Origin: Octopus sinensis | Taxonomy: Eukaryota | Length of the DNA stretch: 64,000 nucleotides | Reading direction: 5' to 3' | NCBI RefSeq assembly: GCF_006345805.1 | Contig: NC_043002.1 | Location: 43,524,001-43,588,000 of the forward strand | Part shown: positions 671 through 55,852 of the stretch, piece after piece | How positions within the stretch are numbered: the stretch's first letter is position 1 | How the letters are laid out: the number at the start of each line of letters is the position of its first letter | Translations under genes and position numbers: made by a program | Notes under the pieces: generated by a model | The model's database searches: none | Seen by the model: the letters and a program-made list of their open reading frames with translations, nothing else | What the model was told of the DNA's origin: nothing

Positions 671-715
671 GAATAACTTGAACTTTGTTACAGAAGAATT
701 GAAGAATCCTTATAG
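671..715 (+). CDS. SLC7A9: Internal exon (45 bp) of SLC7 L-type / b(0,+)AT-like amino-acid transporter
   Basis: Acceptor ttttttataatttacAG, donor GTttgt. Encodes (W)NNLNFVTEELKNPY(R), the conserved SLC7 light-chain W-N-x-LN-x-VTEE-L-x-NP motif. Its terminal AG joins the first A of the next exon to give Arg. Orthology to SLC7A9 versus other SLC7 light chains is not established. Confidence 0.88.
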
Positions 716-989
716 GTTTGTATACAATTAATTTCATGTGTGTGCGTTTGTATAGTAAAATCATAAAAAGGAGTAGAGTGAATTTTTCGTGGAGAGTGGA
801 AAATCGAACGTTTCGGACAGAGTCCTTCTTCGTATATACATATGTACTTTTTAATAAGGATAACTCAATGTGTGTTGTACTGAACATTCAGTTCCGTTAC
901 TATCTTAGATTTTCGGATTGATACACAAGTATATGCTTGAATTTCATATCATCAAGAGCATTTCTTCCCACAAAAATTGTCTAGAAAGT

Positions 990-1270
990 TTTGGGAGCTT
1001 TAAATCCCGGTGTTTATAAGCATGCAGTGCCAGAAAAGTTCAGTTAGATCAACATTATACACTTGTTCTGATGGGCAGCCTTCTTCAGAAATCATTTTCT
1101 ATTTGCATTGGCAATCTCACCAGTCATTTTAATGCTGCGTGAATTGGTGTAACTTTTAAATATTTCAAAATAAATTTTACTAAACAGAAAGTTTATGTCC
1201 GAAGCTGCACCCGCCTTCATTCGCAATTTATCAAAATAAGCTAGCTTTTGCTTCATTGCCCGTTGTGATT
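990..1270 (-). pseudogene. Tigger/pogo transposase remnant
   Basis: Minus-strand translation ..IKMTGEIANAN..ISEEGCPSEQVYNVDLTELFW resembles the Tigger I..GE..SA / EGY..EQVYN.DETGLFW region. A possible N-terminal HTH remnant lies at ~1690-1830. Confidence 0.6.
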
Positions 1271-1289
1271 ATCGGTATGTGTCCAGCCA

Positions 1290-1590
1290 GGTACGTCGTC
1301 TCTAGGGTAGGGTGTTGGCTGATGATCACAGGGCGGTGGGTTTGATTAGTGGACTGGGCGGCGCTTTGTGTCTTTAAGCAATACACATCATTTCACGCTA
1401 CTTTAGTCTACTCAGCTGAAAATGAGAACCAACCTAATGCTGGCTCAGGCCTTTCTACTCTCATGTGCCAAATCGACGTCTCACTAGATAAAGCGTGTGA
1501 GAACCGAGAGGTATTTATGTCAACTTGCAACTACATTAGTTCATTTTCATCACTAGAAGATAAAGGCTGGGATTTAAGTGTCATCCTTTA
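1290..1590 (+). mobile_element. Old tRNA-derived CORE-like SINE copy inserted in the Tigger remnant
   Basis: Aligns by eye with 59610-59760 (gg.ctgggcg.cgc.ttgtgt.ttt.agcaa.acac.tcatttcacg....cagctg..aaatgag). Confidence 0.55.
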
Positions 1591-2844
1591 GATCGACACC
1601 CGCATTCAAAAGTCTTTCCATTTCTAAAATCATTTCATATCTATAAAAATCAATGTCTAGGCATTAAAAAAGTATTTTGATTGAGCGGTTGACTTAATTT
1701 TGTGTTTATTGCACACAAGAATTGTTCTCACTATAAGTGTTGGATTCTTTAACATTTTTACAATGTAGCTGAGATTTACCTCTGTATCATTTTTTTCTTT
1801 AACGTCCAACGTTTATGACGCATTTTCGCACACCTACTCTTTACGTATTTGCAAAGAAATGAAGGCAAAACGGTGATAGGCAAGAAACTTACCCCAAATA
1901 ACAGTGAGCAGTGATGGTCAAAATCGGTAAAATGAGTGATAATCTTATTACCACAGGTACAATAACAGAAATGATAAAATGAAGAAATGGAGGAATGAAG
2001 TCGAAGTATGTGAACTGTCCTGTGTAGAAGACAGTACAGTATGGTTAAAGTCGGTAGGAAGACCTAGATCGTTTGAACTGATGCATGTACAAACATGTTG
2101 GAGTGCGGAGGTCAGAGGGAACGGGGAGAAGAGAAGTGTTGGCAAGAATATTGAGATCACTGGAATATATGATCAACCAGATTGTTGAGAGCAGGGAAAA
2201 ATAAATAAGCATGTAATGAGGGCAGGTGTTAACAGAATTGTTAAATACAATGAAAAATAACAAAGTTTGTTGAAAAGAAATAAACAAATTGCAAGAATTG
2301 AATTAGTAGACTGTGAACAATTAACATGTACAAAGAATTGAGAGAGATGTTAATGAAACAAGCGACAGATATATTCAGATCTCTCACCAGTTTTATATTA
2401 TTTGTAAATATAATTTTTATGCAATTATAAATTTTATGTATATATAACGACCGTTTTGGTTGTTAAATTTTATCTTAATTACCCATAGGTCTTCACGAGG
2501 TTGTATTTTGAAATAAATGGCCAAACATTATACAATTTCTGTAAATGCAAAGTTTTGTAACAAGAGTTGCTACAACCTGAGAATAAGTATGGGAATGCAT
2601 ATGTCTATGTGTTATCACGTATTAAGTTTTGTAATACCCAAATTTCTCTTTGCAATAATAACCTCATAAAATTATAAATATTTTCTACTTGCTTTCCAGT
2701 CATTTGGTTGATCCTATATTGTGTGCTTGAGAGTAATAAGATTTTTCTTGTTCTGACTTGAAATTCAACGTGTAGAGAGCTTAACCTTTCCTCTAATTAT
2801 ATGTGTTCGCGTATGTCTACATTCAACTATATACATGTGTATGT

Positions 2845-2955
2845 CATTATCCAGTTTATTTCAAGATTTCTTGCCAATATAGAAAGAACCGGTTTCTAAC
2901 CTAGATCCAAGGCTTCTTCGTTGGAATTTCAACATCAACAACAGGGTATTTTTGT
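2845..2955 (-). repeat. ~110-bp dispersed repeat attached to (TATG)n; inverted partner at 7912-8024
   Basis: Reverse complement matches 7912-8024 (accctgttgttgatgtt.aaattccaa.gaa..agccttggat.taggtt.gaa.ccgg.tctttct.tattggcaag). Confidence 0.75.
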
Positions 2956-4331
2956 ATGTATGTATGTATGTATGTACGTATGTATGTACGTACGTATGTA
3001 TGTATGTATGTATGTATGTATGTATGTATGTATGTATGTATGTAGGTAGGTAGGTAGGTACAAACTATAAATACATTTCGTCAAAATCATTTCCAAAGAA
3101 TTATTTCATCACTCCTGAGCATGGTCCTTTTCTTTTTAAAAAATAATTCCTTATAAATTCGCTGGCTTGAAACCCTATATTTATTTCCAAAAATATTACC
3201 CAGGACTCCTGTCAGCGGCGTCTTATGCGAGGTCTTCTTGCAGTTTTGAGAAATAATATGAAAGATAGGTTGAATTTCCTTAGCTCATCAATCTCTGTCT
3301 TTCTTTCATAGGAACCTGTCATACTTGGACTAATATTGGTTTAACAATATGGAAATATGTTAGAATTCTGAGAAGCCCATTGGTTTTATCTGTCCAAGAA
3401 GACTTCCTGTTACCAATTGTTTTGTTTTTTTCATAGGGGCCATTTTCTTTGTGGTTTTGCATATGAGCGAGGTAGAAGGCATTAGCTCCAAATTACAATC
3501 GGATTCCTGATACATATGTTTCATTACGTGCTGCAAACTCGTATTCATTGGTGTTAACGCATTGCTCCTTCTCCGAACAAAGGTCAGGAGAACAATCATC
3601 AAAAAATTCAATTTTACTAGGCTTAGTATAACAAGAGAGAGAGAGAGAGAGAGAGAAAGAGGGAGAGAGAGAATTTTAAACCAGCAAGTATCCCGGAACA
3701 ACATTTCTAAACTGGAACAGCTCTGATTTAACCAAGAAATGTAAAACGCACGCACGTACGCACACACATTCACATATATATAGATTAATCTCTATTTTTG
3801 TAAGCAGTTGTATGTCTTAATTTTTGTATGCAGTGTAAATTAACCAAATAGAAGCAAATTAACCAAATAGAAACACATATACGAACTGCTAATTTAACGG
3901 TAAATTCCACAATAATTATTATAGATAAATTTCATAATATATTCTATATTAAGCACATGTGTTAAATGTTAATTTAAGGGTTAATATGTAACTGTAAATA
4001 CCTTGCAACCTTGCAACTGCTGCGATAATTATTAACTGGTAATTGAACGGTACATGTGTATTTTTATATACCTTGACGCTGCCACCACATTGTTCTTTGT
4101 CAAGACTTTCATTTCCAGCCGTTCGTTATGTCAGTCAACACACATATACTGACACACCATTCCGCTGTCATGGCCGTAAAGACGGAAAGTTGGTGATGCA
4201 TAATGTTGTTCACATTATGATATAAATTATTCATTTATTTCAAATACTATAGAAATAAGATGATTTTAAATGTTATCATATTAGAATTTAAAGTGAAAGA
4301 ATAAAAGTGAAACAATATTATAGCCTTATAA

Positions 4332-4535
4332 GGCGGCGAGCTGGCAGAAACGTTAGCACGCCGGCGAAATACTTGGTGCCATTTCACCTGTCTGAGATCA
4401 AATTCCGCCGAGTCGACTTAGCCTTTCATCGTTTCGGAGTTGATAAATTAAGTACCAGTTGTGTAGTGGTCGATCTAATCTACTGGCCCCCTCCCCCAAA
4501 ATTTTAGATTTTGTGTCTAGAGTAGAAAAGAATAT
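4332..4535 (+). mobile_element. tRNA-derived SINE family A
   Basis: Head ggcggcgagctggcagaaacgttagcacgccgg and core gcctttcatc.tttcgg.gt.gataaattaagtaccag, shared with more than 10 copies in the window. Confidence 0.85.
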
Positions 4536-4539
4536 TCTA

Positions 4540-4800
4540 GTTTTATCACATTAGAATTAAAAATGGAAGAATAAAAGTGAAACAATATTATCTTTTGACC
4601 GAAGCAGGCTAAAAGATTGCTCCGGGTCCGCGTTAAGTTGAAATCTTTTTTGCCTATGACACTCAATGGACGCTAAGTAATGCATGTGTAAATTTTGAAT
4701 GAAATCGGTTGACTACTTCTCGAGTATTAGGGATTCACACATACAAACATATAGACAAACAAACAGACACATTTTCAGTTTACGTAGTCCACAAATTATC
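4540..4800 (-). mobile_element. Non-autonomous Helitron-like repeat fragment
   Basis: Similar in reverse complement to 12035-12410 (ctcgagaa.ta..caacc.atttcattcaaa.tt.acac) and shares aaagtgaaacaatat.atc motifs. Confidence 0.45.
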
Positions 4801-4843
4801 TACCTTGAAACACGTCACATTAAATGGACCCGACCCTGTATGA

Positions 4844-5325
<482 letters not shown>

Positions 5326-5327
5326 GG

Positions 5328-5660
<333 letters not shown>

Positions 5661-5709
5661 CTGTTTCAACACACGGTTTCACATCAAGAATCCTGCAAAG
5701 CATATATAT

Positions 5710-5798
<89 letters not shown>

Positions 5799-7810
5799 AG
5801 ATATACATACATGTATACGAATAGATATATGATTCGGGTAATAAAGCTATGTGGTTCAACAGCGTTTTATTCGTGGATCATACTATCGCAGCTAGACTAT
5901 GTTTACCAAACATATCGTACATGTCTTATGTAAACATATTTATTCAAAACCACGCTGCTTTGTTACACTGTTATTAAATCTCAATTGCCGATTTCGTATA
6001 GTTATGTAAATTTCTGTACAATCGTAATAGTTAGTTTACATTATCCATAGGAAGAGCTATTATTCTTAACTTCGCATTAACTTACTCCTAGTGAATCTTT
6101 GCCGATGCTTTTATGATTTATCCATGAGTTATATTTTCACAGTAAGGCTGCATCTGTATTTATAACCAATAAAGTGTACGACATATTTATTAATAACATC
6201 ATTGCTTTGCTATCTTTCTTATTAAGTATGCTTTTAAAAATAATTTACACTTTCACTAGATTCATTCGTTAGACTAGGTTCAGCTTTTCCTCTCTCTCTG
6301 TTACCCATAGATTTTTTTTTATTGCACCGGTAAATGTCAGTTTTGTTCCATTCAGGTTTCAGATTTTTCCAAAGGTGACCAGAGTTTGCGAATTTCATAC
6401 GGTATCCTTTGTTCCGAATACATGGTCAAATGTCACCTATAAGATTTAAATCTACTGTCTGACTTGGCTCAAACATAAATGTTAAGAGGGATTTCCTTTA
6501 ACCACGATCTGTTGCTTTTGGAGTATGCGGGCTATTTTGAAAAATAGCTTCTTTGCTTTGTTTGTATTTTGTTTTGCTTTGTCTTTTTTCCTTCTCCTGG
6601 AAATCATTGCTGCAAAAACAATCCTTTCCCTGGCATTTTTAGGTACTCCAAAGTAGTAACTGACGATTCACACCTTATAAGTTTACCATTGCTTGTAGAT
6701 GGAAATGCGCCTCTAACCATGATTCTACCTCCTCTATGTTCTGTAATTGTAGAAATTCACACAAATAATGGGATCTCTCACCAGCTCTGTAAAGGCACTG
6801 TTTTAGGCATCATTACCACGCTTAAATCTTGATTCTTCACTCCATTGGACTTTCTGAAACCTGTTTCAATTACAGTTACTATACTTGGTCAAAAAATGCA
6901 ATCTGTCACAATTTTTATCAAAGGCTCCTTAGAATATCTCTTAGAGGCAAAAACCAGTACTTTTCCCTCTTATAAAAGTGCATACTTGTTTCCAGCTGTT
7001 CTAAACTCTTTTAGCTGCCACTACAAGTTTTCCTTTCTTTCTAGAAGAATGAAGAATTTCAGTCTTCTGCCGTCTATATTTGTAATAGTTTCAGACTTGC
7101 CAGATCTTTTTATTTTATTTTCAGTAAAACTAGTTTTCTCGAATTGAAGATTTATTCCTTTTATGGTAGGCTGATAAAAATGGGTTATCTTCTTCAGAGT
7201 ATCTTGCAGGAAGGATTTCAGTATATCTGATGCTCGAATCACAAACAATAGTAATTTGATTTTTAATATACACACCAGAATGTAATTTCATTTTTCTTTG
7301 AAGGCATATGAAACACAATATGTTAACTGCTTTGATTTAGCTATCCAATTTTAATTAGAGCTATTCACGTATAACTTTTTATTTAAACGTTGAAAGAAAC
7401 TTCCTGCAGGCTTCCATTTAAAAGAATCCTAAAACTATATATGTTATTTCAGTACTTTCTCCAATTCTTTTTATTACATAGAACAATCCAATGCAAATTT
7501 ATCTTTCATTTTCTAGATATAGAAATATAATCTCTTCTCTTTGCTTGGGATAATGGAACACAATCTTTGAATTTCATTTGTTTTATAAAACTTTATAAAC
7601 GAGACTGTAAAACACGTTTGTGAGGAAAAAAATTGGCGTATATGGATTGAAAAAAAAACTGTTTGGGTAATTTTTTCTCTTTTTTTTTTGCCTAAGAATA
7701 TACCGATCTACCTTTCGGTATGTATATACACATGCAGAGCATACATATACACACATACAATACAAATACATACATACACACGCGCTTACACACTCACATA
7801 CATACATACA

Positions 7811-7844
<34 letters not shown>

Positions 7845-7911
7845 CATACATACATACATACATACATACATACATACATACATACATACATACATACATA
7901 CATACATGCAT

Positions 7912-8024
7912 ACAAAATTACCCTGTTGTTGATGTTAAAATTCCAATGAAAGAGCCTTGGATTTAGGTTTGAAGCCGGCTCTTTCTCTATTGGCAAGGAA
8001 CCTTGAAATAAAACTGAATAATGA
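7912..8024 (+). repeat. Second copy of the ~110-bp (TACA)n-associated repeat
   Basis: Inverted relative to 2845-2955; follows the (TACA)n tract at ~7797-7911. Confidence 0.75.
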
Positions 8025-8039
8025 ATCACAATGGAATCA

Positions 8040-8404
8040 CAAACACCAAGAAACATTTCGTTCGGAATTTGTGCACATACTCGTTTAATAGCTGTTATTT
8101 CTTGCTTTGTGGGGTTCATCGATGTCGCGGTCTTCTGGAACGATTCCTGTGAACATTCTCAACAGCTTCAAACTTATCTCTAATTCGAGTGATAGTAAGT
8201 CGCGTGGATAGATGTGATTGCAACTCCCTTCTAAACTGTCTCTGCTCTTCGACTGCGTTTTCAAACTTCCAGTAGTGCTTCAGGATATATTTCCTGTGTT
8301 AAACGCTTCATCAATTCTAATGGGTTAAATCTTAAAATAAGAGAAGAAAATTAAATGAGTTGTCAATTGCTAAAGTACATATACTGTTTTAGGACTCCCT
8401 GTAT
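8040..8404 (-). mobile_element. Internally deleted Tc1/mariner-type transposon
   Basis: End TA-CAGGGAGTCC on the minus strand (~8393-8404). N-terminal HTH-like ..ILKHYWKFENAVEEQRQFRRE..TRLTITRIRDKFE..HRNRSRRPR is joined directly to C-terminal-like ITAIKRVCAQIPNEMF..VC. Confidence 0.6.
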
Positions 8405-9049
8405 ATCAACATACAAACGTACAAATTATTTAACGTCACTTATAAAGTATGAAGTACTATTTAGTTTATAGACCCACTTGTTTCCTTTAGCGGCTGTAAA
8501 ACTGCAACCAACCAACTACAGCGATTTTAGTGACATTTATGTCTAGTGATATTACTGTCAGCAGCGCGTAGAGAAAGGGTAAGAGATAGGCAGTGTGAAG
8601 GAGAAATAGACAGAGGAAGAGGATGATAGACAATACATTACAAAAATTTACAACAAATCTATGTAAATATTATCTTTTATTTAGTCATTCATTTATTGAT
8701 TTAGTCATTTTATTTATCTAGTTATTTGACATTTGTAGTCACTGTTACATCAGGAATTGCTGTCAAATATCTATTTACCAACAACTAACATTACTGGGCG
8801 TTTGAAATAGCTGCATGGTGATTAATTTTACCACTTGACTGTTCAAATGTTAACTTGTAGTGATTTACAATTTGATGTTTTAGATGCTCAAAGAGGCTTC
8901 AAGTGATTTCAATGCTTATGTTAAAAGCTTTTCATTGCAATAAACTCACTCACAGAATTGATGACAATTTCCCGGCTGAAGAACCGTTAGTTCATATCTG
9001 TTCATTGGATGTTGTCAATGCTAGTGCTGCTGCTGCTGCTGCTGTTGCT

Positions 9050-9435
9050 GTTGAGCGAAGCGGTCTTCGTCTCAGAGCTCGCAAGATCGCGCCTCTGTAG
9101 TGGGAGAAGTCCGAAACGTGGTCTTTTGCTATTCGTAAGACCCGCAAAAGAGAAAGCAGGTCAATTCCCGACACCGAGAGCATCGACGGATGGATGAATG
9201 CGCATCCAGGCTCAGCGGTTGCGTAGGAAGTCGGGGACAAGAAACGGGAAGAAAGAGTGAGAGAAAGTCGGGGCGAAAGAGTACAACAAGGGTCGCCACC
9301 ACCCCCTGCCGGAGCCTCGTGGAGCTTTAGGTGTTTTCGCTCAATAAACACACACAACGCCCGGTCTGGGAATCGAAACCGCGATCTTCCGACCGCGAGT
9401 CCGCTGCTCTAACCATTGGGCCATTGCGTCTCCAC
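9050..9435 (-). mobile_element. tRNA-Arg-like SINE family C
   Basis: Minus-strand head gtggagacgcaatggcccaatggttagagcagcggacTCGcggtcgg..ggtttcgattccc (A and B boxes, TCG anticodon); body shared with 55436-55724 and 59836-60140. Confidence 0.85.
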
Positions 9436-10466
9436 TGCTGCTGCAGATGTTGTTTTTGTTGTTGTTGTTTAACCCCAGATCAACCGAATTCTATCGCAGC
9501 AGACCTATAATTAAAGATATTCCAGTCGTGATCATCCCGATTATATTCTATATAGAGAGAAAGCTTGATCAGATTATCCAACACGTTCTTTTTAAAGGTG
9601 GAAGATTGTAACTCAAGGTATGTTTTACCGTGCTTATTGTAAGTATTAGGCAAGTCATCAAACTTCCCATCAGGAACAGGCTAAACAGTTTTTGTCTACA
9701 CAATTCTACTCCCAAAGCGCAGCAACATACATACATTCATATGCATTGTGTGTGTGAGAGCATGTATGTGTCTGTGTATATGTGTGTACGTGTGTGTTTT
9801 CATTCTTATGTGTTGTGTGTGTACATGTGAGTGCATATATATGTATATATATATATACTCGGTGATTTATCACAGTTGTTCCCGCTTTTTGTTTCAAAGA
9901 AATATTTCCAAAGTTATAACTGGCTACACAATCAGTACCAGGTCAGCGCACGTGATTCTCGGTTCATAGTTTCCAATATATAATATTTGTCCCACCGTGG
10001 TTGACTTTGCCTTTCCTTGGAGTGATAACATAGCAGCAGTCAAGCATTTGGGTTAATATATATAGTAGACTATATCCTCAGCAACAAAAATATTTTTGAC
10101 CTTGTGCTTACGTTAGAAACCAGAATATAATCTTTATCTGTTAACTTACATTTTACAGGCATAAAATCTCGTGCGTCATATTTCATCTTCCTGTTTGTTT
10201 TTCTTTTGAAGCTGTCAAAAAAATCAGCACGCTTTCCGTGTACGAAAAAGAGTATATTAAGAGGTGTATATGCGTTATTTGCTGGAAGAAGCAAACAAAA
10301 TCTAGGAACTACAAAATATCTAAGTTCACAACACTATCACAATGTAACTTCTGATATCATTCTTTTATTTTTCATATACAATCCTTGCCAACGTCCATGA
10401 AACAAAGTCTTCGCAAAATCTTTAATTTTCTTTCATATATATATATATATGAATAAGGTGTATATC

Positions 10467-10517
<51 letters not shown>

Positions 10518-10649
10518 AAAATAGTAAAGTGTGAAAAAACGACAGAAGGCTTAAATGTTAAAAAATATATATATTTGTGTCAAAATGTCTGGAGAACATT
10601 GGAAAAATTTTTTTCCTTTCCTTAAAATGACATAATTTTAAAATTTTTA

Positions 10650-10689
10650 AAGAAATTACCGGTTTCGCGTGTAGCTTTTCAAATTTCTT
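10650..10689 (-). ncRNA. Second copy of the U3:A8 HHR (inverted arm)
   Basis: Exact reverse complement of 11805-11844. Confidence 0.7.
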
Positions 10690-11159
10690 GTGACGTTATG
10701 TTTATATTGCATGGAATTATCGTTGTTTTTATTTCCAGGAGATTTCTAAATAAGGGGAGGTAGTGAGTGATTTTTTCCGGTGTAGGGGAGATAATCGCTT
10801 AAAAAATTTTTTTTTCCATTTCCTTGTTAATTTCTCTGTGTCAGTATGTTCGGATGGTTGAGTCTGGGTTTGTACTTTTCAATGAAGAATGTTTCCTTGT
10901 TCAGTCTCATTTGTGTTGATGATCCGAAAGCACATTGGTAAAATGGGAAGATTAAAAATTGTGGCAGTAGTTGCTTTGCGCATTTCTCAATGTGCTCACT
11001 AAAAGGTATCATTCTATATTCTGGGAATGCAATCTGTTGTCGATGCAGTGTGCATCTGCGCCTGAGTGATAGTCCCGTGGAACCATCACCATCATCACCC
11101 AGAATTTACCAATACTTCATAAAAACCCAAAATTAAAGGAAATTCTAAACATACACCAA

Positions 11160-11667
11160 ATCATTAAAAGCTACAAACAGCCTAAATCACTTAAAAAGAT
11201 TCTCACAAAGGCAAAATTGTCTTCTAAAATTACGGATGCAAAAGTAAAAAAATGTGGTAGATCGAACTGTGCAACATGTCCTAACCTATTGGAAGGATCA
11301 GAATTCTTCTTTAAGAGGGACAGAAATTTAAGATCAAATCTAACTTTACTTGTGCCTCTGAAAACATAATTTATGTTATTAAATGCTCGGGCTGCCACCA
11401 GACTACGTGGGTTCCACGGGACTATCACTCAGGCGCAGATGCACACTGCATCGACAACAGATTGCATTCCCAGAATATAGAATGATACCTTTTAGTGAGC
11501 ACATTGAGAAATGCGCAAAGCAACTACTGCCACAATTTTTAATCTTCCCATTTTACCAATGTGCTTTCGGATCATCAACACAAATGAGACTGAACAAGGA
11601 AACATTCTTCATTGAAAAGTACAAACCCAGACTCAACCATCCGAACATACTGACACAGAGAAATTAA
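11160..11667 (+). pseudogene. PLE linker Zn-finger plus GIY-YIG endonuclease (frameshifted)
   Basis: IIY and YVG motifs, conserved R, H, E and LN residues; two frameshifts near 11315 and 11400. Confidence 0.85.
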
Positions 11668-11804
11668 CAAGGAAATGGAAAAAAAAAATTTTTAAGCGAT
11701 TATCTCCCCTACACCGGAAAAAATCACTCACTACCTCCCCTTATTTAGAAATCTCCTGGAAATAAAAACAACGATAATTCCATGCAATATAAACATAACG
11801 TCAC

Positions 11805-11844
11805 AAGAAATTTGAAAAGCTACACGCGAAACCGGTAATTTCTT
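11805..11844 (+). ncRNA. Minimal type I HHR, U3:A8 core variant
   Basis: aagaaat-TTGAAAA-GC tacac GC-GAA-ACCGGT-A-atttctt: 7-bp perfect stem I, 2-bp stem II, palindromic stem III, cleavage triplet GUA. Confidence 0.7.
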
Positions 11845-12034
11845 TAAAAATTTTAAAATTATGTCATTTTAAGGAAAGGAAAAAAATTTTTCCAATATTC
11901 TCCAGACATTTTGACACAAATATATATATTTTTTAACATTTAAGCCTTCTGTCGTTTTTTCACACTTTACTATTTTCTTATATATTCACCCACGTGCTTT
12001 ACCAAACAAACTTTCTTATATATATATATATATA

Positions 12035-12410
12035 TAAATAAAACACAGAATCTGTGTGACAGTCTGTATGTGTGAAGCCCGAAAACTCGAGAACTACCCA
12101 ACCAATTTCATTCAAATTATACACTAAAACTGAGAATGTGTATCTGTCTGTCTGTATTTATATATGTGTGTGTGAAGCCCTAAAACTAGAGAACAACGCA
12201 ATCGATTTAATTCAAACTTTATACATACATTACTTTGAGACCATGGAGTGTCATGGGCCGAAACAATTTTCAACTTCTTGCCTAATGAGGGCCCGGGGCA
12301 GTCTCTTAGACTAGTTCTGTATTACGTGTCAAAAGTGAAACAATATCATCTATATTGTAATGTGATATAATATGGTTTCATTCTTATTCTTTCACTTTTA
12401 ATTCTACTGT
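12035..12410 (+). mobile_element. 5' part of a non-autonomous Helitron-like repeat
   Basis: ataaaa..gtgtg..gtctgt start typical of this family; internal duplication (gtgtgaagccc.aaaact.gaga twice); similar to 4540-4800. Confidence 0.45.
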
Positions 12411-12419
12411 GAGACTCAT

Positions 12420-14490
12420 GTGGGTCTTGTATTAGCATGAATATATATATTAGACAAAATGAGATAACAAAGCCAATGCTGTAAGGGGTTTTCAGTACAT
12501 TTGTAAGGAATAAGATAAAGTTATAGTCTTACTGCTGTTTCTGGTATATTATGGAAATCATTTCATCAGAGACGATGTGAGATGGTTAAATAGAAGCAAA
12601 TATTTGAGTTCGAAATAAGGAATTATTATGGAAACGGAGAAGATAGGGAATACAGAAAGAAATAAGAGAATGAAAGTAGAAATAAAATATAAAGTATATA
12701 AAGATATTTTAGTTGCAGTTCCATTATTCGAGGAAAGTGGTGCATAGAAGTGGCAAAAAAGTTTCCAGTACATGATATATAAGTTCCAATAGTAGTTCAT
12801 GTTTAATCATTTCAGAGAATGGAGTCGTGGATTCTGCATTGTTCATTCGAAATGGTCTTGTGGTGTTAATGAAAATTTGAGAATCTATTGGTAGTATTTG
12901 TGGATAGAGGGGAGGGAGAGAGATGTGTATGATTAGAGTGAGGAGATAGGTCAAAATGAAAACAGGAAGAGAAAATGAAAGGAAAAAGAGAGAGAGAGAG
13001 AGAGAAAAGAACAGAGGAAAATGTGGAAAGAGTGAAGAAAAGCGAAGAAAGTGTGAAAGAAGTGAGAAAACGAGTGTTAGCTGGTGGTCAAGATAATGTG
13101 AGGGGAGGACGGAAGAGAAGCAGGGAGGGATTGGAAGAGATGGGTAGATAAGGAATGAATAAGTGTGAGATATGTGAGTAGGGGTAATATGACAGAGCTG
13201 CATTAAGGGATGGGTAGAGAAAATGTATGGGTGGGGTTTTAGTAGTAAAATTTAAAGTGGAGGGGTGTCAAATTTCTATAAACGTATGTAATCGTACAGG
13301 TTAGTGTGATAGTTAGGAATCAGAGAGGAGAAAAGGAGATATAATGACTTACGTACGCACACACACACGTACAAATACATGTGCGCATATGTATACATAC
13401 ACATACGCATCCGTAAATGTATTTATACATGCATATGTGTGCGCATACGTATACATATATACACATGCACACACTCACTCATATATATTTGTACATACAT
13501 AAGCACGTGCATATACATACACCCCCACCCCCATATATATATATATATATACATATATATATACACACACACACATACATATACCCATATACATATACAT
13601 ACACAAATGTGCAATCTCACACATTTGCACATACACATGTATCCGCTTGCATGTCCCTGTATGTAGTATTAAATGATTGAGATCTTTAAAGTAAGATAGA
13701 AAATTAGGATGGAGATAAAGGAATGTTAAGTAAGGTTGTTGGGGATTACCTAAGGGGTGTTGTGGACACATGCTGTGTGGTTATTTAGGTTGCATTTAGA
13801 TTTGTGGTAAAATTTGAAGGTATGAAAAAGGCGGTGGTTGCATGTATTTATTTAGTAGTGTCGAGGAGTTGTGTTTTGATATGTGGAATGCCTCCTTTAG
13901 GCATAGCTTAAAAGCTAAGCATTGATCTTGGTATGGAAGCCCTGAATCTATTATGGACCATGACAAAATGTAGGGAATATTTCTATTTTTGCGATGATGT
14001 ATGTGACTAGCGAGTGTTGTGGAACTGCTGTGTTCCTCGTATCTAAAAGATCAGCGGGATGTCACTATCTAAAAATTATAGTTGACTCTCTCTATATAGC
14101 TGTAGAATTGTGGAATGTGTTGAGGGCGGTACATTTATAAATTACATAAGATCTTCTACAATGGGTTTGTAGAGGGCAGATAGACCCAGGACGGTAGTTA
14201 AAAGTGGATGTATTTTGCAGATTGTTTTCAGGAATAAGAAGGTAAAACTGTCAGAAGAGACGTTAGAGATGGGGGGGGGGAGTAGAAATGCCTAAGTTAT
14301 TAGTATTCTTATTACTAATATCGTTATTATTGCTATCGCTGTTGTTAACTGTTCTATCTATAATGGCTCCATTCTTTGAAATGACTAACAGGAAACTTTT
14401 ACCACTTCTATACACCACTTTCCTCGAATAATGGAACTGCAACTATAATATCTTTATATATTTTATATTTTATTTCTACTTTCATTCATT
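12420..14490 (-). mobile_element. Degenerate Penelope-like element (Naiad-like GIY-YIG) with inverted segment
   Basis: Minus-strand 13840-14200 reads ICPLQTHC..VIYKC../FRYEEHSSSTTLASHIH..IPYILSWSIIDSGLPY..C..KLCLKE..I..LLNK, matching the CPL-x-x-x-C / WSII..PY..CxLC.E..LLN pattern of Naiad-type PLE endonucleases. 12668-12766 and 14391-14487 are inverted repeats. HHR at 12526. Confidence 0.7.
12526..12573 (-). ncRNA. Slightly degenerate type I HHR at the 3' end of the Naiad-like PLE
   Basis: Minus strand: gtct-CTGATGA-aatgat..atacca-GAAA-cagcag-TA-agac. Stem I is 4 bp; stem III is one change from the palindrome ACAGCTGT. Confidence 0.6.
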
Positions 14491-14499
14491 ACACACATA

Positions 14500-15000
14500 C
14501 TACAACAAAACACACACACGAGACATATACACGCACACACACACACCTCCCTGTTTCTGACCTGCCTTCCTGACTCGCTAGGGTACCCCCACACCACTTC
14601 TTTAATTCTACTGCTGCTTGCCACTAGCCATTGTCCACCATACACACACATACACACACATACACACACACGCACACACTCACACACACACCCTTCTCAT
14701 CTCGCACACCTTTGTTTACCATTCCTTCTTTGATTCAGCTCTCCTGTTTTTGAAAACATGTTCCTCCTTTTTTACCACTTCCGTCTTTTCAGTATGTGAC
14801 CTCGTGAAGACCACTTGCAATTTTTTTTTTCTGTCCTCCCACCTCGGGATCTTTCTTTCTCCTATGTTTCCGACGAAGAGCTCTGCTCGAAACGTCATAC
14901 CCTCCTTCTTCCCTTCTTTCCTGAGCGTCCAATAATACTTTATTTGTTCCACATCCTCGCGTTGTTGTCTTTTTGTTTTCTTGTTTGGATTAACTTTATA
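14500..15000 (+). mobile_element. pLTR-like non-coding repeat with degenerate HHR
   Basis: CCGACGA-A-GAGC tct GCTC-GAAA-CGTC at 14870-14896 (U4->C). The tail 14899-15000 recurs inverted at ~17337-17445. Confidence 0.55.
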
Positions 15001-15009
15001 TATACATAC

Positions 15010-15153
<144 letters not shown>

Positions 15154-15169
15154 ATGTATGTATATATGT

Positions 15170-15310
15170 AGGTCCCGGGTTGAGTCGAGGTTAACCACAG
15201 TAAATAAGGTACTCAATACATAGCAGAGTAAATTAATTTATTTTATAGAAGGAGCTTCTACAGGACTAGAACTGTTTCATTCCTGTAGAAGCTCCTTCTA
15301 TAAAATAAAT
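15170..15310 (-). mobile_element. Short PLE-like fragment with perfect 30-bp hairpin
   Basis: 15236-15265 and 15281-15310 are perfect inverted repeats (15-nt loop). The minus strand contains the 3' half of an HHR, GAAA-CAG ttctagtc CTG-TA-gaagct. Lies between (TA)n tracts. Confidence 0.55.
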
Positions 15311-15311
15311 A

Positions 15312-15366
<55 letters not shown>

Positions 15367-15543
15367 TATAGATATAGATATATATATATTATATATATAT
15401 GTAGATATATATATGTATTTGGTGGTACTGGTAAGGGCTTACGCTCGCTCTGATGCCACGAGTTGAGGTGATGTCTTCTAGTGCCTTCAAATTTAATACA
15501 CAATTATTAATAATTGAGACGCAATTATTTATAATTGAAGAGT

Positions 15544-15634
15544 CCTACGCTGAGGAGGAAAATAGTCAGGTAAGACATAATCATTTAATTTTTATGCTCT
15601 GCAATGACTTAATTCCGAAACGTACGTCCGTAGG
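15544..15634 (+). ncRNA. Type I HHR with long stem II
   Basis: cctacg-CTGAGGA-GGAA..AGTCA..CATAA..TTATG..TGACT..TTCC-GAAA-CGTACG-TC-cgtagg: perfect 6-bp stem I, palindromic stem III ACGTACGT, canonical GUC site. Confidence 0.82.
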
Positions 15635-15816
15635 TGATTTAATATAGAATGATTTTCGTCATTTCTTTCTCTTTTGCCTGCGTCGTTTGCTTTTTAAGTG
15701 CTTTGGTTTTACTGGGATCTCCCTTTTAAGTAGAAAGAATACCCAAAACTTTTTGACTGCTATTTCTAAATTCGGTGTGTGGTGAGGCAAATCGTTGCTA
15801 AACCCTTAATTATTTA

Positions 15817-15838
15817 GTATATATATAATATATATATA

Positions 15839-15869
<31 letters not shown>

Positions 15870-15885
15870 AATGTATATATATATT

Positions 15886-15928
<43 letters not shown>

Positions 15929-16067
15929 ACATATATATATGTATATATATGTGTACATATGTATATATATATGTGTATATATATGCATGTATATATGTAT
16001 ATATATATATGCATATATGTATATATATACATATATATACATACATACATATATATATATATATACA

Positions 16068-16098
<31 letters not shown>

Positions 16099-16127
16099 GT
16101 ATATATATATATGCATATATGTATATA

Positions 16128-16202
<75 letters not shown>

Positions 16203-16204
16203 AT
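15817..16204. repeat. (TA)n/(TACA)n compound microsatellite
   Basis: Direct inspection. Confidence 0.97.
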
Positions 16205-16208
16205 GAAT

Positions 16209-16505
16209 TATAGCCTCTGCCCGACCAAAGCCTTGTGAGTCGATTTTGTACACGGAAACGGAAACAAAAATGTTGTATATATGTATATATTTGTGTGATT
16301 GTCTCTGTGTTTGTGTTCCAAACATCGCTTGACAGCCGATGTTGGTGTATTTACGTCACCGTGTCTTAGTGGTTCGGCAAAAGATACTGATGGAATAAGT
16401 ACAATGGCTTACAAAGAATAAATCCTGGGATCTCTTTGTTCGATTAAAGGCGGTGCTCCAGCACAGCCGCAGTTATATGACTGAAAGAAGTCAAAGAATA
16501 AAAAA
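16209..16505 (+). mobile_element. SINE family B, 5'-truncated
   Basis: cccgaccaaagccttgtgagt..acggaaac..; tail aaaggcggtgctccagcac.gccgcagtt.tatgactgaaag. Confidence 0.8.
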
Positions 16506-16874
16506 ATTATGCCATTTAAATCACGAACAACGCCGGGTATTTCTACTAATATAGTAGAATAGTGTGTCTATAGCCAGCTGGAGGAGATATCTTCCTGGGG
16601 CTACAAACTACAGTAGCATCCACCCTTATGGGTTAGCCATATTCAAATGGCAAATATGCATCACGATGATAAATCTCAGAGCGAGTTATAAACAGTAGCG
16701 GTAACACATCGTGACGCATATTTGCCATTTGAATATGGCTAACCCATAAGGGTGGATGCTACTGTAGTTTGTAGCCCCAGGAAGATATCTCCTCCAGCTG
16801 GCTATAGACACACTATCTGTGTCCTCTCAGTATTTGTGAAGGGGAGTCATCCTCCCCGTCTTCAACACATGATA

Positions 16875-16919
16875 CACACGTACCCGAGTTTCAAGGTGTT
16901 TACCTTTCATCAGCGTGTG
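16875..16919 (-). ncRNA. Intact type I hammerhead ribozyme (minus-strand copy)
   Basis: Exact reverse complement of 17119-17163. Confidence 0.88.
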
Positions 16920-17118
16920 ACAATCATGGTTGTCGACGAGAAGTCAGATCCCTTCACAAATACATTTACTTTTTCCAGTGTCGATTGACACTGATATTGA
17001 AAAAGTGAAATCAAACAATGATAAATCTCAGAGCGAGTTATAAACAGTAGCGGTAACACATCGTGACGCATATTTGCCATTTGAAGGGATCTGACTTCTC
17101 GTCGACAACCATGATTGT

Positions 17119-17163
17119 CACACGCTGATGAAAGGTAAACACCTTGAAACTCGGGTACGTGTG
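17119..17163 (+). ncRNA. Intact type I hammerhead ribozyme
   Basis: cacacg-CTGATGA-AAGGT aaac ACCTT-GAAA-CTCGGG-TA-cgtgtg; stem I extends via catga/tcatg; cleavage triplet GUA. Confidence 0.88.
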
Positions 17164-17336
17164 TATCATGTGTTGAAGACGGGGAGGATGACTCCCCTTC
17201 ACAAATACTGAGAGGACACAGATAGTGTGTCTATAGCCAGCTGGAGGAGATATCTTCCTGGGGCTACAAACTACAGTAGCATCCACCCTTATGGGTTAGC
17301 CATATTCAAATGGCAAATATCCGTCACGATATATAT

Positions 17337-17445
17337 ATATAAAGTTTATCCAAACAAGAAAGCACAAAAAAACACAACAACGCGAGGACGTGGAACAAAT
17401 ATAGTATTATTGGACGCTCAGGAAAGAAGGAAAGAAGGAGGGTTT
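17337..17445 (-). repeat. Short copy of the pLTR-like tail seen at 14899-15000
   Basis: Reverse complement accctccttctttccttctttcctgagcgtccaataatact.tatttgttccac.tcctcgcgttgttgt matches 14899-15000. Confidence 0.75.
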
Positions 17446-17618
17446 ATATATATATATATATATATATATCCTGCGGCTTAAAACAACTAGTCATTGCATT
17501 CATTTTATTATATTCCTTTTCCGTATACAAAAGACATTCATTCTTGTCGGGGGAAGAAAAAAAATTGCGTAGCTATTTTGTGTACTAAATCTTTTCTTTT
17601 GTGTGTTTTTTTTTTCAG

Positions 17619-17742
17619 AGATTTGCCTCTCTCCATCATAATTGGCATTCCTCTCACCACTGTTTGTTATGTTCTCACCAATATTGGATACTTCAGTGTT
17701 ATGTCTAAAGAGGAAATCAATGCATCTCATGCAGTGGCTGTC
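17619..17742 (+). CDS. SLC7A9: Internal exon (124 bp) of SLC7A9-like amino-acid transporter
   Basis: Poly-T acceptor ...tttttcAG, donor GTatgt. Encodes (R)[41 protein letters not shown], closely resembling the SLC7A9 segment RNLPLAIIIGIPLVT..Y...N.SYF.VM.....L.S.AVAV. Phase is compatible with both neighbouring exons. Confidence 0.92.
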
Positions 17743-25807: not shown

Positions 25808-25809
<2 letters not shown>

Positions 25810-26170
25810 CTTGTTTCAGTCATTTGACTGCGGCCATGCTGGAGCACCGCCTTTAGTCGAGCAAATCGACCCCGGGACTTATTCTTTGTAAGCCCAGTAC
25901 TTATTCTATCGGTCTCTTTTGCCGAACCGCTAAGTGACGGGGACGTAAACACACCAGCATCGGTTGTCAAGCAATGCTAGGGGAACAAACACAGACACAC
26001 AAACATATTCACACACACTTATATATATATACATATATACGACAGGCTTCTTTCAGTTTCCGTCTACCAAATCCACTCACAAGGCATTGGTCGGCCCGGG
26101 GTTATAGCAGAAGACACTTGCCCAAGATGCCACGCAGTGGGACTGAACCCGGAACCAAACAGCCACTCCT
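25808..26170 (-). mobile_element. SINE family B, near full length
   Basis: Minus-strand head aggagtggctg..ggttccgggttcagtcccactgcgtggcatcttgggcaagtgtctt; tail ggcggtgctccagcatggccgcagtcaaatgactgaaacaagta. Confidence 0.88.
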
Positions 26171-31293: not shown

Positions 31294-31397
31294 TTTTGGG
31301 GCGAAAGCGTCCTCGGAATCATGGCTTGGATAATGCCAATGTTTGTTGTTATGTCATGCTTCGGAGCGGCCAATGGTGTCTTATTCTCAACCGGAAG
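31294..31397 (+). CDS. SLC7A9: Internal exon (104 bp) of SLC7A9-like amino-acid transporter
   Basis: Poly-T acceptor ...catcttgtAG, donor GTaagt. Encodes FWGESVLGIMAWIMPMFVVMSCFGAANGVLFSTG(R), the SLC7 TM8 motif W-I-x-P-x-FV-x-x-S-x-x-GAANG-x-x-F-x-x-GR, in frame with the previous exon. Confidence 0.92.
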
Positions 31398-31451
31398 GTA
31401 AGTCAATGTTTTACATTTTATCATTATATTCTATTATTTCTAAGTCGTTAA

Positions 31452-35021: not shown

Positions 35022-35248
35022 TTTACTCTTTACTCTTACTCTTTTACTCTTTTACTTGTTTCAGTCATTTGACTGCGGCCATACTGGAGCACCACCTTTA
35101 ATCGAGCAACTCGACCCCGGGACTTATTCTTTGTAAGCCCAGTACTTATTCTATCGGTCTCTTTTTGCCGAACCGCTAAGTCACGGGGACATAAACACAC
35201 CAGCATCGGTTGTCAAGCAATGCTAGGGAGACAAACACAGCCACACAA

Positions 35249-54247: not shown

Positions 54248-55204
54248 AGTGTGCACTGTAAAACATATCGTTATGTACATCCATCAGGACCTGTTTTTAA
54301 GTGGGATCTCTACATATAAGTAGTGCCAAACTCACTCCTAATCTGTCAGCAATTTGCAATGTGCAGATGACCGATTACGGTTACATAAAATATGATAAAG
54401 AAATATGAGTTTTACTGCCGATGTGTCAACTGTCTTGACTAAAATACAAACAACTATACAGTTGACCTGAAAGAAGATAAGTTGAAATACAGTCACAACA
54501 TATACTCTCGTAAAGTATCACGACGAATGCACAACGTATATTGTCACAACATTGTATTTTACATGCAATGAATCACATATTTCCCTTACAAAACTACTTA
54601 CAAAAACTTTCAACACGACAATAACGAAACATACTTATTTGTGTTTTGTCCCACAAAATATACTTGTAAAATTGGAATGAGTTTTAAAGGCTGACAAACA
54701 CTGCTAAGTAGAATGTATTCTCTAAATATTTAAGTGTCCTAGATACAAACTCACTGTTTTTGCAACTTGATCATACCCGTTCAGCGTCTGTCAGATAGTG
54801 AAATTGCTTTTCTTATGTAATCATTATTTTCTTCTTTTTTTTTTCTTTTTTTTTTTAGAAAATATTAATATTTTCTGCCTCAGCCACAATGTATATAATA
54901 TGATTGTATATTTTAAGTGGCTTCCCATAGCTTTTCCTCCAAGTATAAATGGAAACTAAGAGTTTAGAGGGAAGAGTAATGTTACTTCTACAATAAGAAG
55001 ACAAAATATTTTCGCACAGACACAAGTCCATTCACAAATGTACATCGCCACACAGAACAAGGATGCGCGCACACACATACGCTAACATATTTAATCCATC
55101 CATCTTCGACGCATATTATTCCTAGAAGGATCGTCTTCAGGTACCTCCTCCACGGGGCCTTATCAGAGGTGTAACAAACTGAAACAATTCCTTTATTCTA
55201 TTAT

Positions 55205-55852
55205 TATTTTACTTGTTTCAATCATTTGACTGCGACCATGCTGGAGCACCACCTGAAGGGTTTTTTTAGTTAAAGAAATCGACCAGAGAACTTATTCTTT
55301 GTAAGCCTAGTATTTATTCTATCGGTATCCTTTGCCGAGCTGCTTATGTTACGGCGACGGAAACACACCAACATCGGTTGTCAAGTGATGGGGGGGGGGA
55401 CAAGCGCAGACACAAAGACATACAAACATAAATATATCACGTGATCACGTGACTGACCAGGCTATCAGATGTTGCTACGCATCGCTGGTCACAATGCGCT
55501 TCGCATTGTTTTGGCCTTCAAATGACGCCACCCCACTGGCTAAGCGAGCTGGCCAACAGAAGAAAGAATGAGAGAAAGTTGCGGTGAAAGAGTACAGCAG
55601 GGATCGCCACCACACCCTGCCGGAGCCTCGTGGGGCTTTAGGTGTTTTCGCTCAATAAATACTCACAACGCCCGGTTTGGGAATCGAAACCGCGACCCTA
55701 CGACCGCGAGTTCGCTGCCCCAACCATATATACGACGGGCTTCTTTAGTTTCCATCTACCAAATCTACTCACGAGGCCTTGGTCGACTCGAGGCACTTGG
55801 CCAAGGTGTCACCCGGAACGATGTGGTTGGGAAGCAAGCTTCTTACCACATA
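55205..55852 (-). mobile_element. SINE family B interrupted by a family C SINE
   Basis: B tail at 55205-55435; B head at ~55725-55852. Confidence 0.75.
55436..55724 (-). mobile_element. tRNA-Arg-like SINE family C
   Basis: Head and body shared with 9245-9435; the 3' tail differs. Confidence 0.85.

Follow-up and report, generated by a model that had tools for sequence, protein, structure and literature searches.

Metazoan non-LTR retrozymes, as described from coral, Mytilus (~350-390 bp) and axolotl (330/350 bp), are non-coding units of 170-400 nt with a type I hammerhead whose short stem III carries a self-complementary loop, a GC content below 50% and strong self-pairing, and they occur as head-to-tail copies in genomes that also harbor Penelope-like elements (PLEs) (PMC7229834). 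Validated animal retrozymes are circular RNAs within this size range (PMC7229834). The enzyme that moves them has so far been argued from co-occurrence and from homology to the pseudo-LTRs (pLTRs) of PLEs (PMC7229834, 10.64898/2026.07.22.740005), and a 2026 preprint on 35 species, mainly vertebrates, leaves the mobilisation mechanism open (10.64898/2026.07.22.740005).

PLE insertions are reported to contain an inverted 5'-truncated copy and a tail of 30-40 bp at one end (10.1101/2021.04.23.441226, PMC3846280), and an anole PLE studied in vitro used two internal RT start sites, produced a tail and extended both strands (PMC11167929). LINEs of the Tx1 clade, for their part, insert precisely into multicopy targets, as with Xenopus Tx1 in Tx1D, Keno in U2, Kibi/Koshi in microsatellites and Tx1-Mar in Mariner (PMC4494074). 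The targets named in the published accounts are transposons, U2 and other small RNA genes, microsatellites and unnamed satellites (PMC4494074, PMC4640811), one figure legend giving only 'satellites', unspecified.

A 352-nt hammerhead-motif unit in an octopus intron

The window, by which we mean the whole 64,000-nucleotide stretch of Octopus sinensis DNA that was analysed, contains a repeat that brings these systems together. We consider the window locus to be a dead-end copy of a dispersed non-coding 352-nt hammerhead repeat, a non-LTR retrozyme likely inserted by a PLE reverse transcriptase (RT) and GIY-YIG endonuclease, probably from a circular RNA, and we assign this reading a probability of about 0.78. 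The unit is numbered in hammerhead sense, with position 1 the first base past the predicted GUA cleavage site (window 16880, minus strand), and the genome searched comprises 2.72 Gb in 30 chromosome-scale contigs. The features of the locus, including the putative priming sites A and B discussed below, are as follows.

671-715, plus strand: SLC7 amino-acid transporter exon, upstream of the element-bearing intron
16559-16667, plus strand: extra sense arm, 5'-truncated, unit 65-174, ending at priming site A
16666-17085, minus strand: central arm, 420 nt (1.19 units), unit 148-352 continuing into 1-215, with its outer 3' end at priming site B
16666-16733, minus strand: terminal redundancy, copy 1, recurring at 17018-17085
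16666-16707, minus strand: PLE-type 'tail', unit 174-215, between priming sites A and B, at one end only of the two-armed insertion (assigned in part from PMC11167929)
16875-16919, minus strand: hammerhead, type I motif, predicted cleavage between 16881 and 16880
16920-16939, minus strand: LINE target, 20 nt, unit 294-313, unoccupied in the window copy
17018-17085, minus strand: terminal redundancy, copy 2
17082-17330, plus strand: right arm, unit 277-352 continuing into 1-173, with its outer 3' end at site A
17099-17118, plus strand: LINE target, 20 nt, second copy, also unoccupied
17119-17163, plus strand: hammerhead, second copy, in sense to the host pre-mRNA, with cleavage predicted between 17157 and 17158
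17331-17340, no strand assigned: (AT)n target tract at the right end of the element
17619-17742, plus strand: SLC7 exon, downstream of the element

A first-pass annotation made from the letters alone had described about 1.2 head-to-tail copies of the unit on the minus strand, with terminal redundancy and with sense fragments of different starts on both sides. This anatomy was reproduced throughout: the 420-nt central arm contains a direct repeat at a spacing of 352 (71 nt, 99%), and the flanking fragments are unit +[65>174] and +[277>173]. An inverted repeat of 249 nt (100%) relates 16708-16956 to 17082-17330. The central and right arms form a standard B+A pair joined head-to-head with a 4-nt overlap at the junction, and the A end of the left arm meets the B end of the central arm with an overlap of 2-3 nt. 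The resulting +-+ layout is unusual, being found at one of 69 census loci, and its oddity lies only in the extra left piece. The simplest reading is that the left arm is a short earlier insertion whose (AT)n junction was cut again. Alternatives are a single event followed by CpG decay at position 166, a polymorphic site that reads A in the left arm and G in the other three passes through the unit, or an aborted third cDNA. The window locus shows no evident target duplication.

With one hammerhead per strand, the window locus cannot release a unit-length monomer. The host intron (716-17618) belongs to a plus-strand gene, and in its pre-mRNA the arms are predicted to pair as one ~250-bp duplex that would bury, and thus silence, the sense hammerhead. 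Two-armed intronic copies in general would supply long perfect RNA duplexes.

Several minor features accompany the element. The host gene encodes a b0,+AT/LAT-like SLC7 transporter, with three plus-strand exons at 671-715, 17619-17742 and about 31300-31400; it is not among the listed matches of a PF13520 profile search of the genome, and the exons were located by motif instead. The left junction (16540-16558) carries a short fold-back (TTCTACTA/TAGTAGAA), possibly insertion filler DNA. A (TA)n-flanked repeat at 17330-17443 and 14899-15008, the two copies being 90% identical, is very deep in sequencing contigs. Finally, a short dispersed repeat of SINE-like appearance occurs at 16406-16503, 25809-25894, 35042-35139 and 55195-55307, and the first of these copies adjoins the left side of the element.

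The window hammerhead combines the CUGAUGA and GAAA core motifs and a GUA site with a 6-bp stem I, a 5-bp stem II and a 2-bp stem III closed by a 4-nt UCGG loop. In animal type I hammerheads, a short stem III capped by a palindromic loop is the common arrangement (PMC4209133). The first-pass annotation had called this ribozyme perfect, a description that suits the core motifs and the cleavage site but not the rest of the motif: stem III has only two pairs, stem II opens with an A-U pair in place of G-C, the minimum free energy (MFE) structure omits stem III such that forcing the hammerhead fold costs 5.6 kcal/mol, and no Rfam hammerhead model was matched either at the gathering score or at E<=10, where only hairpin miRNA models were returned, on the inverted repeats. 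Because the stem III octamer self-pairs at -8.9 kcal/mol, the motif could take a dimeric form. The predicted monomer fold (-134 kcal/mol, z -8.35, with none of 100 shuffles as good) contains the long gtatttgtgaaggg/cccttcacaaatac stem and the additional hairpins named in the first-pass annotation. The proposed lack of credible coding capacity likewise holds, given that no open reading frame (ORF) within the element exceeds 106 aa.

The unit has a GC content of 42.6%, is multicopy, and lacks an LTR and an RT of its own. It shares with the metazoan retrozymes outlined above (PMC7229834) their size, non-coding character, type I hammerhead with short stem III and self-complementary loop, low GC content, strong self-pairing, head-to-tail copies and coexistence with PLEs. 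The unit thus matches a non-LTR retrozyme in every feature that can be judged from sequence, its ribozyme activity being predicted. Two differences should be recognized. The octopus copies are mostly dispersed fragments of 0.1-3.5 units, not arrays, and the unit is known here from DNA sequence, whereas the published retrozymes were validated as circular RNAs (PMC7229834). The words 'octopus' and 'cephalopod' do not appear in the main text of that study. A giant squid genome paper counts 235 hammerhead-1 loci without description in the part that treats them (PMC6962438), and a paper on O. vulgaris repeats reports recently active L1-Tx1 and Penelope families in a main text from which the word 'ribozyme' is absent (PMC13282606).

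Exact searches of the genome returned 96 copies of a 38-nt core and 455 of a 37-mer, with none for the reversed controls, bearing out the earlier proposal of a young multicopy family. A related query recovered older subfamilies that are 69-88% like the window unit and that keep the hammerhead core and three stems. Across 22 copies from several subfamilies, the positions of the named structure pair in 88.9% of cells, compared with 35-48% when the structure is slid along the alignment, and cells changed on both sides number 57 versus 26 in shuffled data, including stem II and the helices around the ribozyme. The 12 double-changed pairs do not exceed shuffles (139 of 500), and most of the covariation separates two subfamily groups, so that few events are being counted. 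Just 7 of the 22 aligned copies have a standard pair at the first position of stem II, and the hairpin bearing site A is poorly conserved (57.7% paired). When RNAalifold derived its own consensus from an alignment of copies, stems I and II were recovered, and stem III and the downstream junction were not. Among 147 loci, no core position varies at the 10% level, all 20 variable columns lying elsewhere, and the cleavage base is A in 87 cases, C in 32, T in one and G in none.

Two further observations concern relatives of the unit. A far more diverged unit-like copy with an altered hammerhead region lies directly behind a LINE-bearing unit (L232:7830-8200), which points to the existence of still older subfamilies. 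At two other loci (L032 and L139), units are joined at about position 300-319 to a GCGCATGCGCAGTCACAC-type minisatellite, with a 7-nt word common to both.

Insertion ends and the mode of mobilisation

To describe where copies end, we took all 93 of the 37-mer matches listed on contigs C1-C3, which resolve into 69 loci and 115 segments; since each copy carries the exact 37-mer, this census describes the young subfamily. Outer 3' ends fall 51 times at unit positions 158-179 (site A, ~170) and 51 times at 212-223 (site B, ~216), or 102 of 108 in all, within windows that together span 34 of the 352 positions and that were set after the first end sets had been viewed, some census loci overlapping those sets. 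The two sites are about 45 nt apart. A (TA)3 sequence lies within 20 nt of 91 of the 108 outer 3' ends. Unlike the 3' ends, the 5' ends of the units are scattered.

The form seen most often, at 39 of 69 loci, is the two-armed head-to-head insertion, the layouts being 35 '-+', 28 single arms, two '--+', two '-++', one '--' and one '+-+'. Where two outer 3' ends are present (39 loci, scored with slightly wider windows), 35 are A+B, none is A+A, none is B+B and four include an unclassed end. Where there is one (30 loci), the sites are used 15 times each. The 40 head-to-head junctions comprise 18 with an overlap of 1-6 nt, six that are blunt and 16 with inserted bases. Target duplications of 12-14 nt that are not (TA)n occur at five of the 69 loci, compared with 0.1 in shuffled pairings.

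These results alter the picture that had been drawn from the window alone. Copies are not freely permuted, contrary to what the first-pass annotation had proposed: variation is confined to the 5' ends, and the 3' ends keep to two internal sites. Nor is the inversion a template-switching accident peculiar to this locus, as had been suggested, or an assembly artefact, a concern raised at the same time, given that the same two-armed form recurs at 39 of 69 loci.

Two other readings of the ends were considered and set aside. Microhomology alone does not account for the end sites, in that 53 unit positions end in AT or TA and just eight of them lie in windows A and B. An apparent accumulation of 5' ends at the cleavage site (4 of 55 versus 1.0 expected) is matched by other 4-nt windows that reach five, and a non-census set contained none.

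The unit ends carry the 'tail' signature of PLEs, and mobilisation of the PLE type, as the earlier annotation envisaged, is likely, in view of the two fixed 3' sites, the A+B pairing at 35 of 39 two-armed loci and the (TA)n targets. EN+ PLEs of the Neptune/Nematis type resemble the unit in having two internal 3' end sites, a tail at one end only, head-to-head inverted arms, AT-rich or (TA)n targets and target duplications of ~10 bp (10.1101/2021.04.23.441226, PMC11167929, PMC3846280). The unit differs from them in that it has no ORF, bears a tail of about 45 nt, closes on itself and does not match the pLTRs of the PLEs sampled. A further difference is that the PAc study reports no difference in start site between strands (PMC11167929), whereas the two classed ends of one unit insertion always differ. 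We did not find two fixed 3' end sites or two-armed anatomy described for metazoan retrozymes in the account cited above (PMC7229834). The class of element is a known one. The novelty lies in evidence for PLE mobilisation from the insertion ends themselves, with a strict rule of one site per strand, and in the Tx1-like LINE described below. This rule constrains how PLEs make the tail and the inverted arm, and the presence of a PLE signature in a protein-free 352-nt unit provides a minimal substrate for an in vitro test.

The genome does contain PLEs with RT and GIY-YIG domains, including intact frames of 775-781 aa with the linker CxxxxCxxC motif, and in members of the 781-aa family the 3' ends before (AT)n come in a short and a long form separated by about 25-40 nt. 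A unit-like pLTR is absent from all 49 GIY-YIG loci examined (of 5029 candidates), and so a PLE partner is inferred from insertion anatomy. One candidate for a direct PLE-unit fusion (L147) was rejected on finding a microsatellite between the two.

We envision that the few loci with two tandem hammerheads would be transcribed, cut to unit length and ligated into a circle. A PLE protein would then bind the stem region at unit 110-190, cut both strands of an AT-rich target and prime one cDNA per target strand, one at A and the other at B, on the same template. The two cDNAs would stop at variable points and be joined head-to-head, often via 1-6 nt of microhomology. In the window, such an A/B pair (16666-17330) may have inserted at the 3' junction of a short arm that was already present and ended at A.

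A Tx1-like LINE with the unit as its target

Seven unit loci have a common upstream sequence joined at unit position 294. The inserted element is a LINE of 5.3 kb, represented by natural copy L153:3917-9245, whose ORF1 has a zinc knuckle and which also encodes APE, RT and zf-RVT domains. Its ORF2 aligns with Xenopus Tx1 ORF2 at 244 bits and 36% identity (58th of 120 matches listed) and with human L1 ORF2p at 149 bits; by these pairwise scores the LINE is closer to Tx1 than to L1, and we call it Tx1-like on that basis.

When the LINE 3' end was used as a query (30 of 40 scored matches examined), 18 of the 19 loci of the closest subfamily ran into unit position 294, compared with none of 11 in a sister subfamily. 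A pattern of the last 32 nt alone found 18 subfamily matches, 17 of them at the unit. Exact LINE-unit junctions number 19, reduced to about 16 places once two duplicated groups are removed. At nine loci with both LINE ends, unit 294-313 is duplicated over 20 bp with 0-2 mismatches, and at one locus two LINEs lie in tandem around the target. The sister subfamily occurs outside the unit on contigs C28 and C2 (L191-L198, L200) in a repeated region with a common downstream flank, which is either a second target or a segmental duplication.

Insertion was repeated and independent, in that similar LINEs lie in divergent units. At 15 loci, the mean difference is 2.6% for the 3' 500 nt of the LINEs and 9.6% (maximum 18%) for the flanking units, with no correlation between the two (Mantel r -0.16), and LINEs that are 1.2% apart sit in units that are 13-14% apart. 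In one cluster of four loci, LINE and unit alike are closely similar. Among 5'-truncated LINE copies, two have unit sequence upstream and five do not, and at one locus (L157) an inverted internal LINE arm ending in (TA)n lies opposite a unit arm. The five copies without upstream unit and the inverted arm suggest that some chimeras were moved whole by the PLE route.

Tx1-clade LINEs as described in PMC4494074 share with this element the zinc knuckle of ORF1, the APE, RT and zf-RVT domains of ORF2, a precise 3' junction in a multicopy target, target duplication and occasional tandem insertion. Its own target is distinct, being a hammerhead retrozyme entered 6 nt upstream of the catalytic core, which we did not find among the Tx1 targets listed in published accounts. 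Literature searches pairing hammerheads with Tx1 and with octopus or cephalopods, and retrozymes with LINE targets, gave no report of the unit or of a retrozyme-targeting LINE; Repbase or Dfam may list either under another name. A LINE aimed at a ribozyme retroelement, and accurate to the single base, brings a further class of target to Tx1 biology.

What the LINE endonuclease recognises is likely the sequence of the unit itself. An intact hammerhead lies 6 nt downstream of the duplicated target, placing 59 nt between the LINE end and the predicted cleavage site, and the LINE may use this downstream ribozyme. More tentatively, and with odds that we judge to fall somewhat short of even, the elements may form a three-tier stack. 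A PLE would use two different sites on a single circular retrozyme RNA to prime the two strands of the target, and the Tx1-like LINE would have evolved to target the retrozyme just 5' of its hammerhead. The borrowed ribozyme would cut the LINE read-through transcript 59 nt past its end, leaving target-matching sequence for precise re-insertion, and the LINE-retrozyme chimeras would also be moved by the PLE machinery. The LINE-retrozyme pair is a testable case of one element using the ribozyme of another.

Template, partner and competing explanations

Fifty-four of the 115 census segments cross the cleavage site, 25 exceed 352 nt and two exceed 704 nt; arms that run through the cleavage site fit a circular or an uncleaved multimeric template. 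Repeated units within one arm differ by 2.0% compared with 4.9% between loci, and the two arms of one insertion differ by 2.1% compared with 4.6%. Alleles at 11 polymorphic sites agree within insertions in 501 of 533 comparisons (299 expected), indicating that one template or haplotype gave rise to both arms. This combination of read-through and haplotype agreement fits an uncleaved multimeric transcript as well as a circle. Sequencing data do not distinguish the two. Over half of the unit words are present in 20 of 24 sequencing runs with five organism labels, none recorded as RNA. Eight of the runs were compared, all of them in contig form; a 313-nt contig in X9 spans the hammerhead and a contig in X20 reaches back 352 nt. 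Genomic tandems would produce such a junction as well, and therefore neither contig demonstrates a circle.

A PLE might accordingly have copied this non-autonomous element from linear multimeric or read-through transcripts that were never cleaved, with the hammerhead kept and no circle needed. The anole PLE makes such a route plausible, since its insertion in vitro was indifferent to hammerhead mutants and unprocessed RNA was the dominant substrate (PMC11167929), and stem III of the unit is weak. Head-to-tail loci with two intact same-strand cores, able to release a monomer, also exist in the family (4 of 69 in the census), the window locus not being one of them. However, there is no long tandem array among the 96 core matches or the 100 37-mer matches listed, and the longest arms reach about 3.2-3.5 units, so a linear-only route would shrink at every round. 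In addition, the core is invariant among propagating variants, and validated animal retrozymes of similar size are circular (PMC7229834). We consider copying from linear RNA unlikely for these reasons.

The partner could also be closer at hand than a PLE acting in trans. If the unit were the pseudo-LTR of an autonomous PLE, with ORF-bearing copies that are scarce, have been lost or are missing from the assembly, its hammerhead and its arrangement would be expected, in that pLTRs bear type I hammerheads and occur as tandem and inverted pieces with a tail (10.1101/2021.04.23.441226) and Xenopus retrozymes are homologous to pLTRs (10.64898/2026.07.22.740005); moreover, the GIY-YIG loci examined number only 49. 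We nonetheless regard this as very improbable. The unit closes head-to-tail on itself without an ORF junction, no copy examined is joined to a PLE ORF (in keeping with the original proposal that it is not an ordinary pLTR), the sampled PLE pLTRs are unrelated to it, and the sole PLE beside a unit (L147) is the one set apart by a microsatellite. Among the unit loci within L001-L150, the sole coding element at a fixed unit position is the Tx1-like LINE. That LINE might itself be the mobilising partner, with the unit as a 3'-derived, SINE-like passenger, which would account for the 17 of 18 subfamily 3' ends that abut the unit and for the five truncated copies without unit upstream. This explanation is hardly credible, because full-length LINEs lie inside the unit between two copies of unit 294-313 that represent a target duplication, the 3' ends of the unit fall at A and B in (TA)n and away from the LINE target, and 19 LINE junctions compare with 455 unit matches. 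Insertion of a retrozyme by a PLE thus remains our preferred reading.

Some properties of the octopus PLEs deserve mention in their own right. No canonical hammerhead was found by motif scan in the 781-aa family. The pLTR of the 775-aa family carries a minimal hammerhead with a palindromic GTAC stem III (L165:5132, plus strand; L147:3736, minus strand), and this hammerhead is unrelated in sequence to the 352-nt unit. The 3' region of the 781-aa family (L148:4875-5600 and relatives) contains a run of repeats rich in ATTGG and TGACGTC, which we take to be promoter-like. Canonical EN+ PLEs are described as single-ORF elements. Three octopus RT/GIY-YIG PLEs (L148:1174-4874, L150:4239-7939 and L147:4245-7318) have a separate upstream ORF, without a Pfam match, that overlaps the start of the RT ORF and encodes 479 aa in L148 and L150 and a 280-aa remnant in L147.
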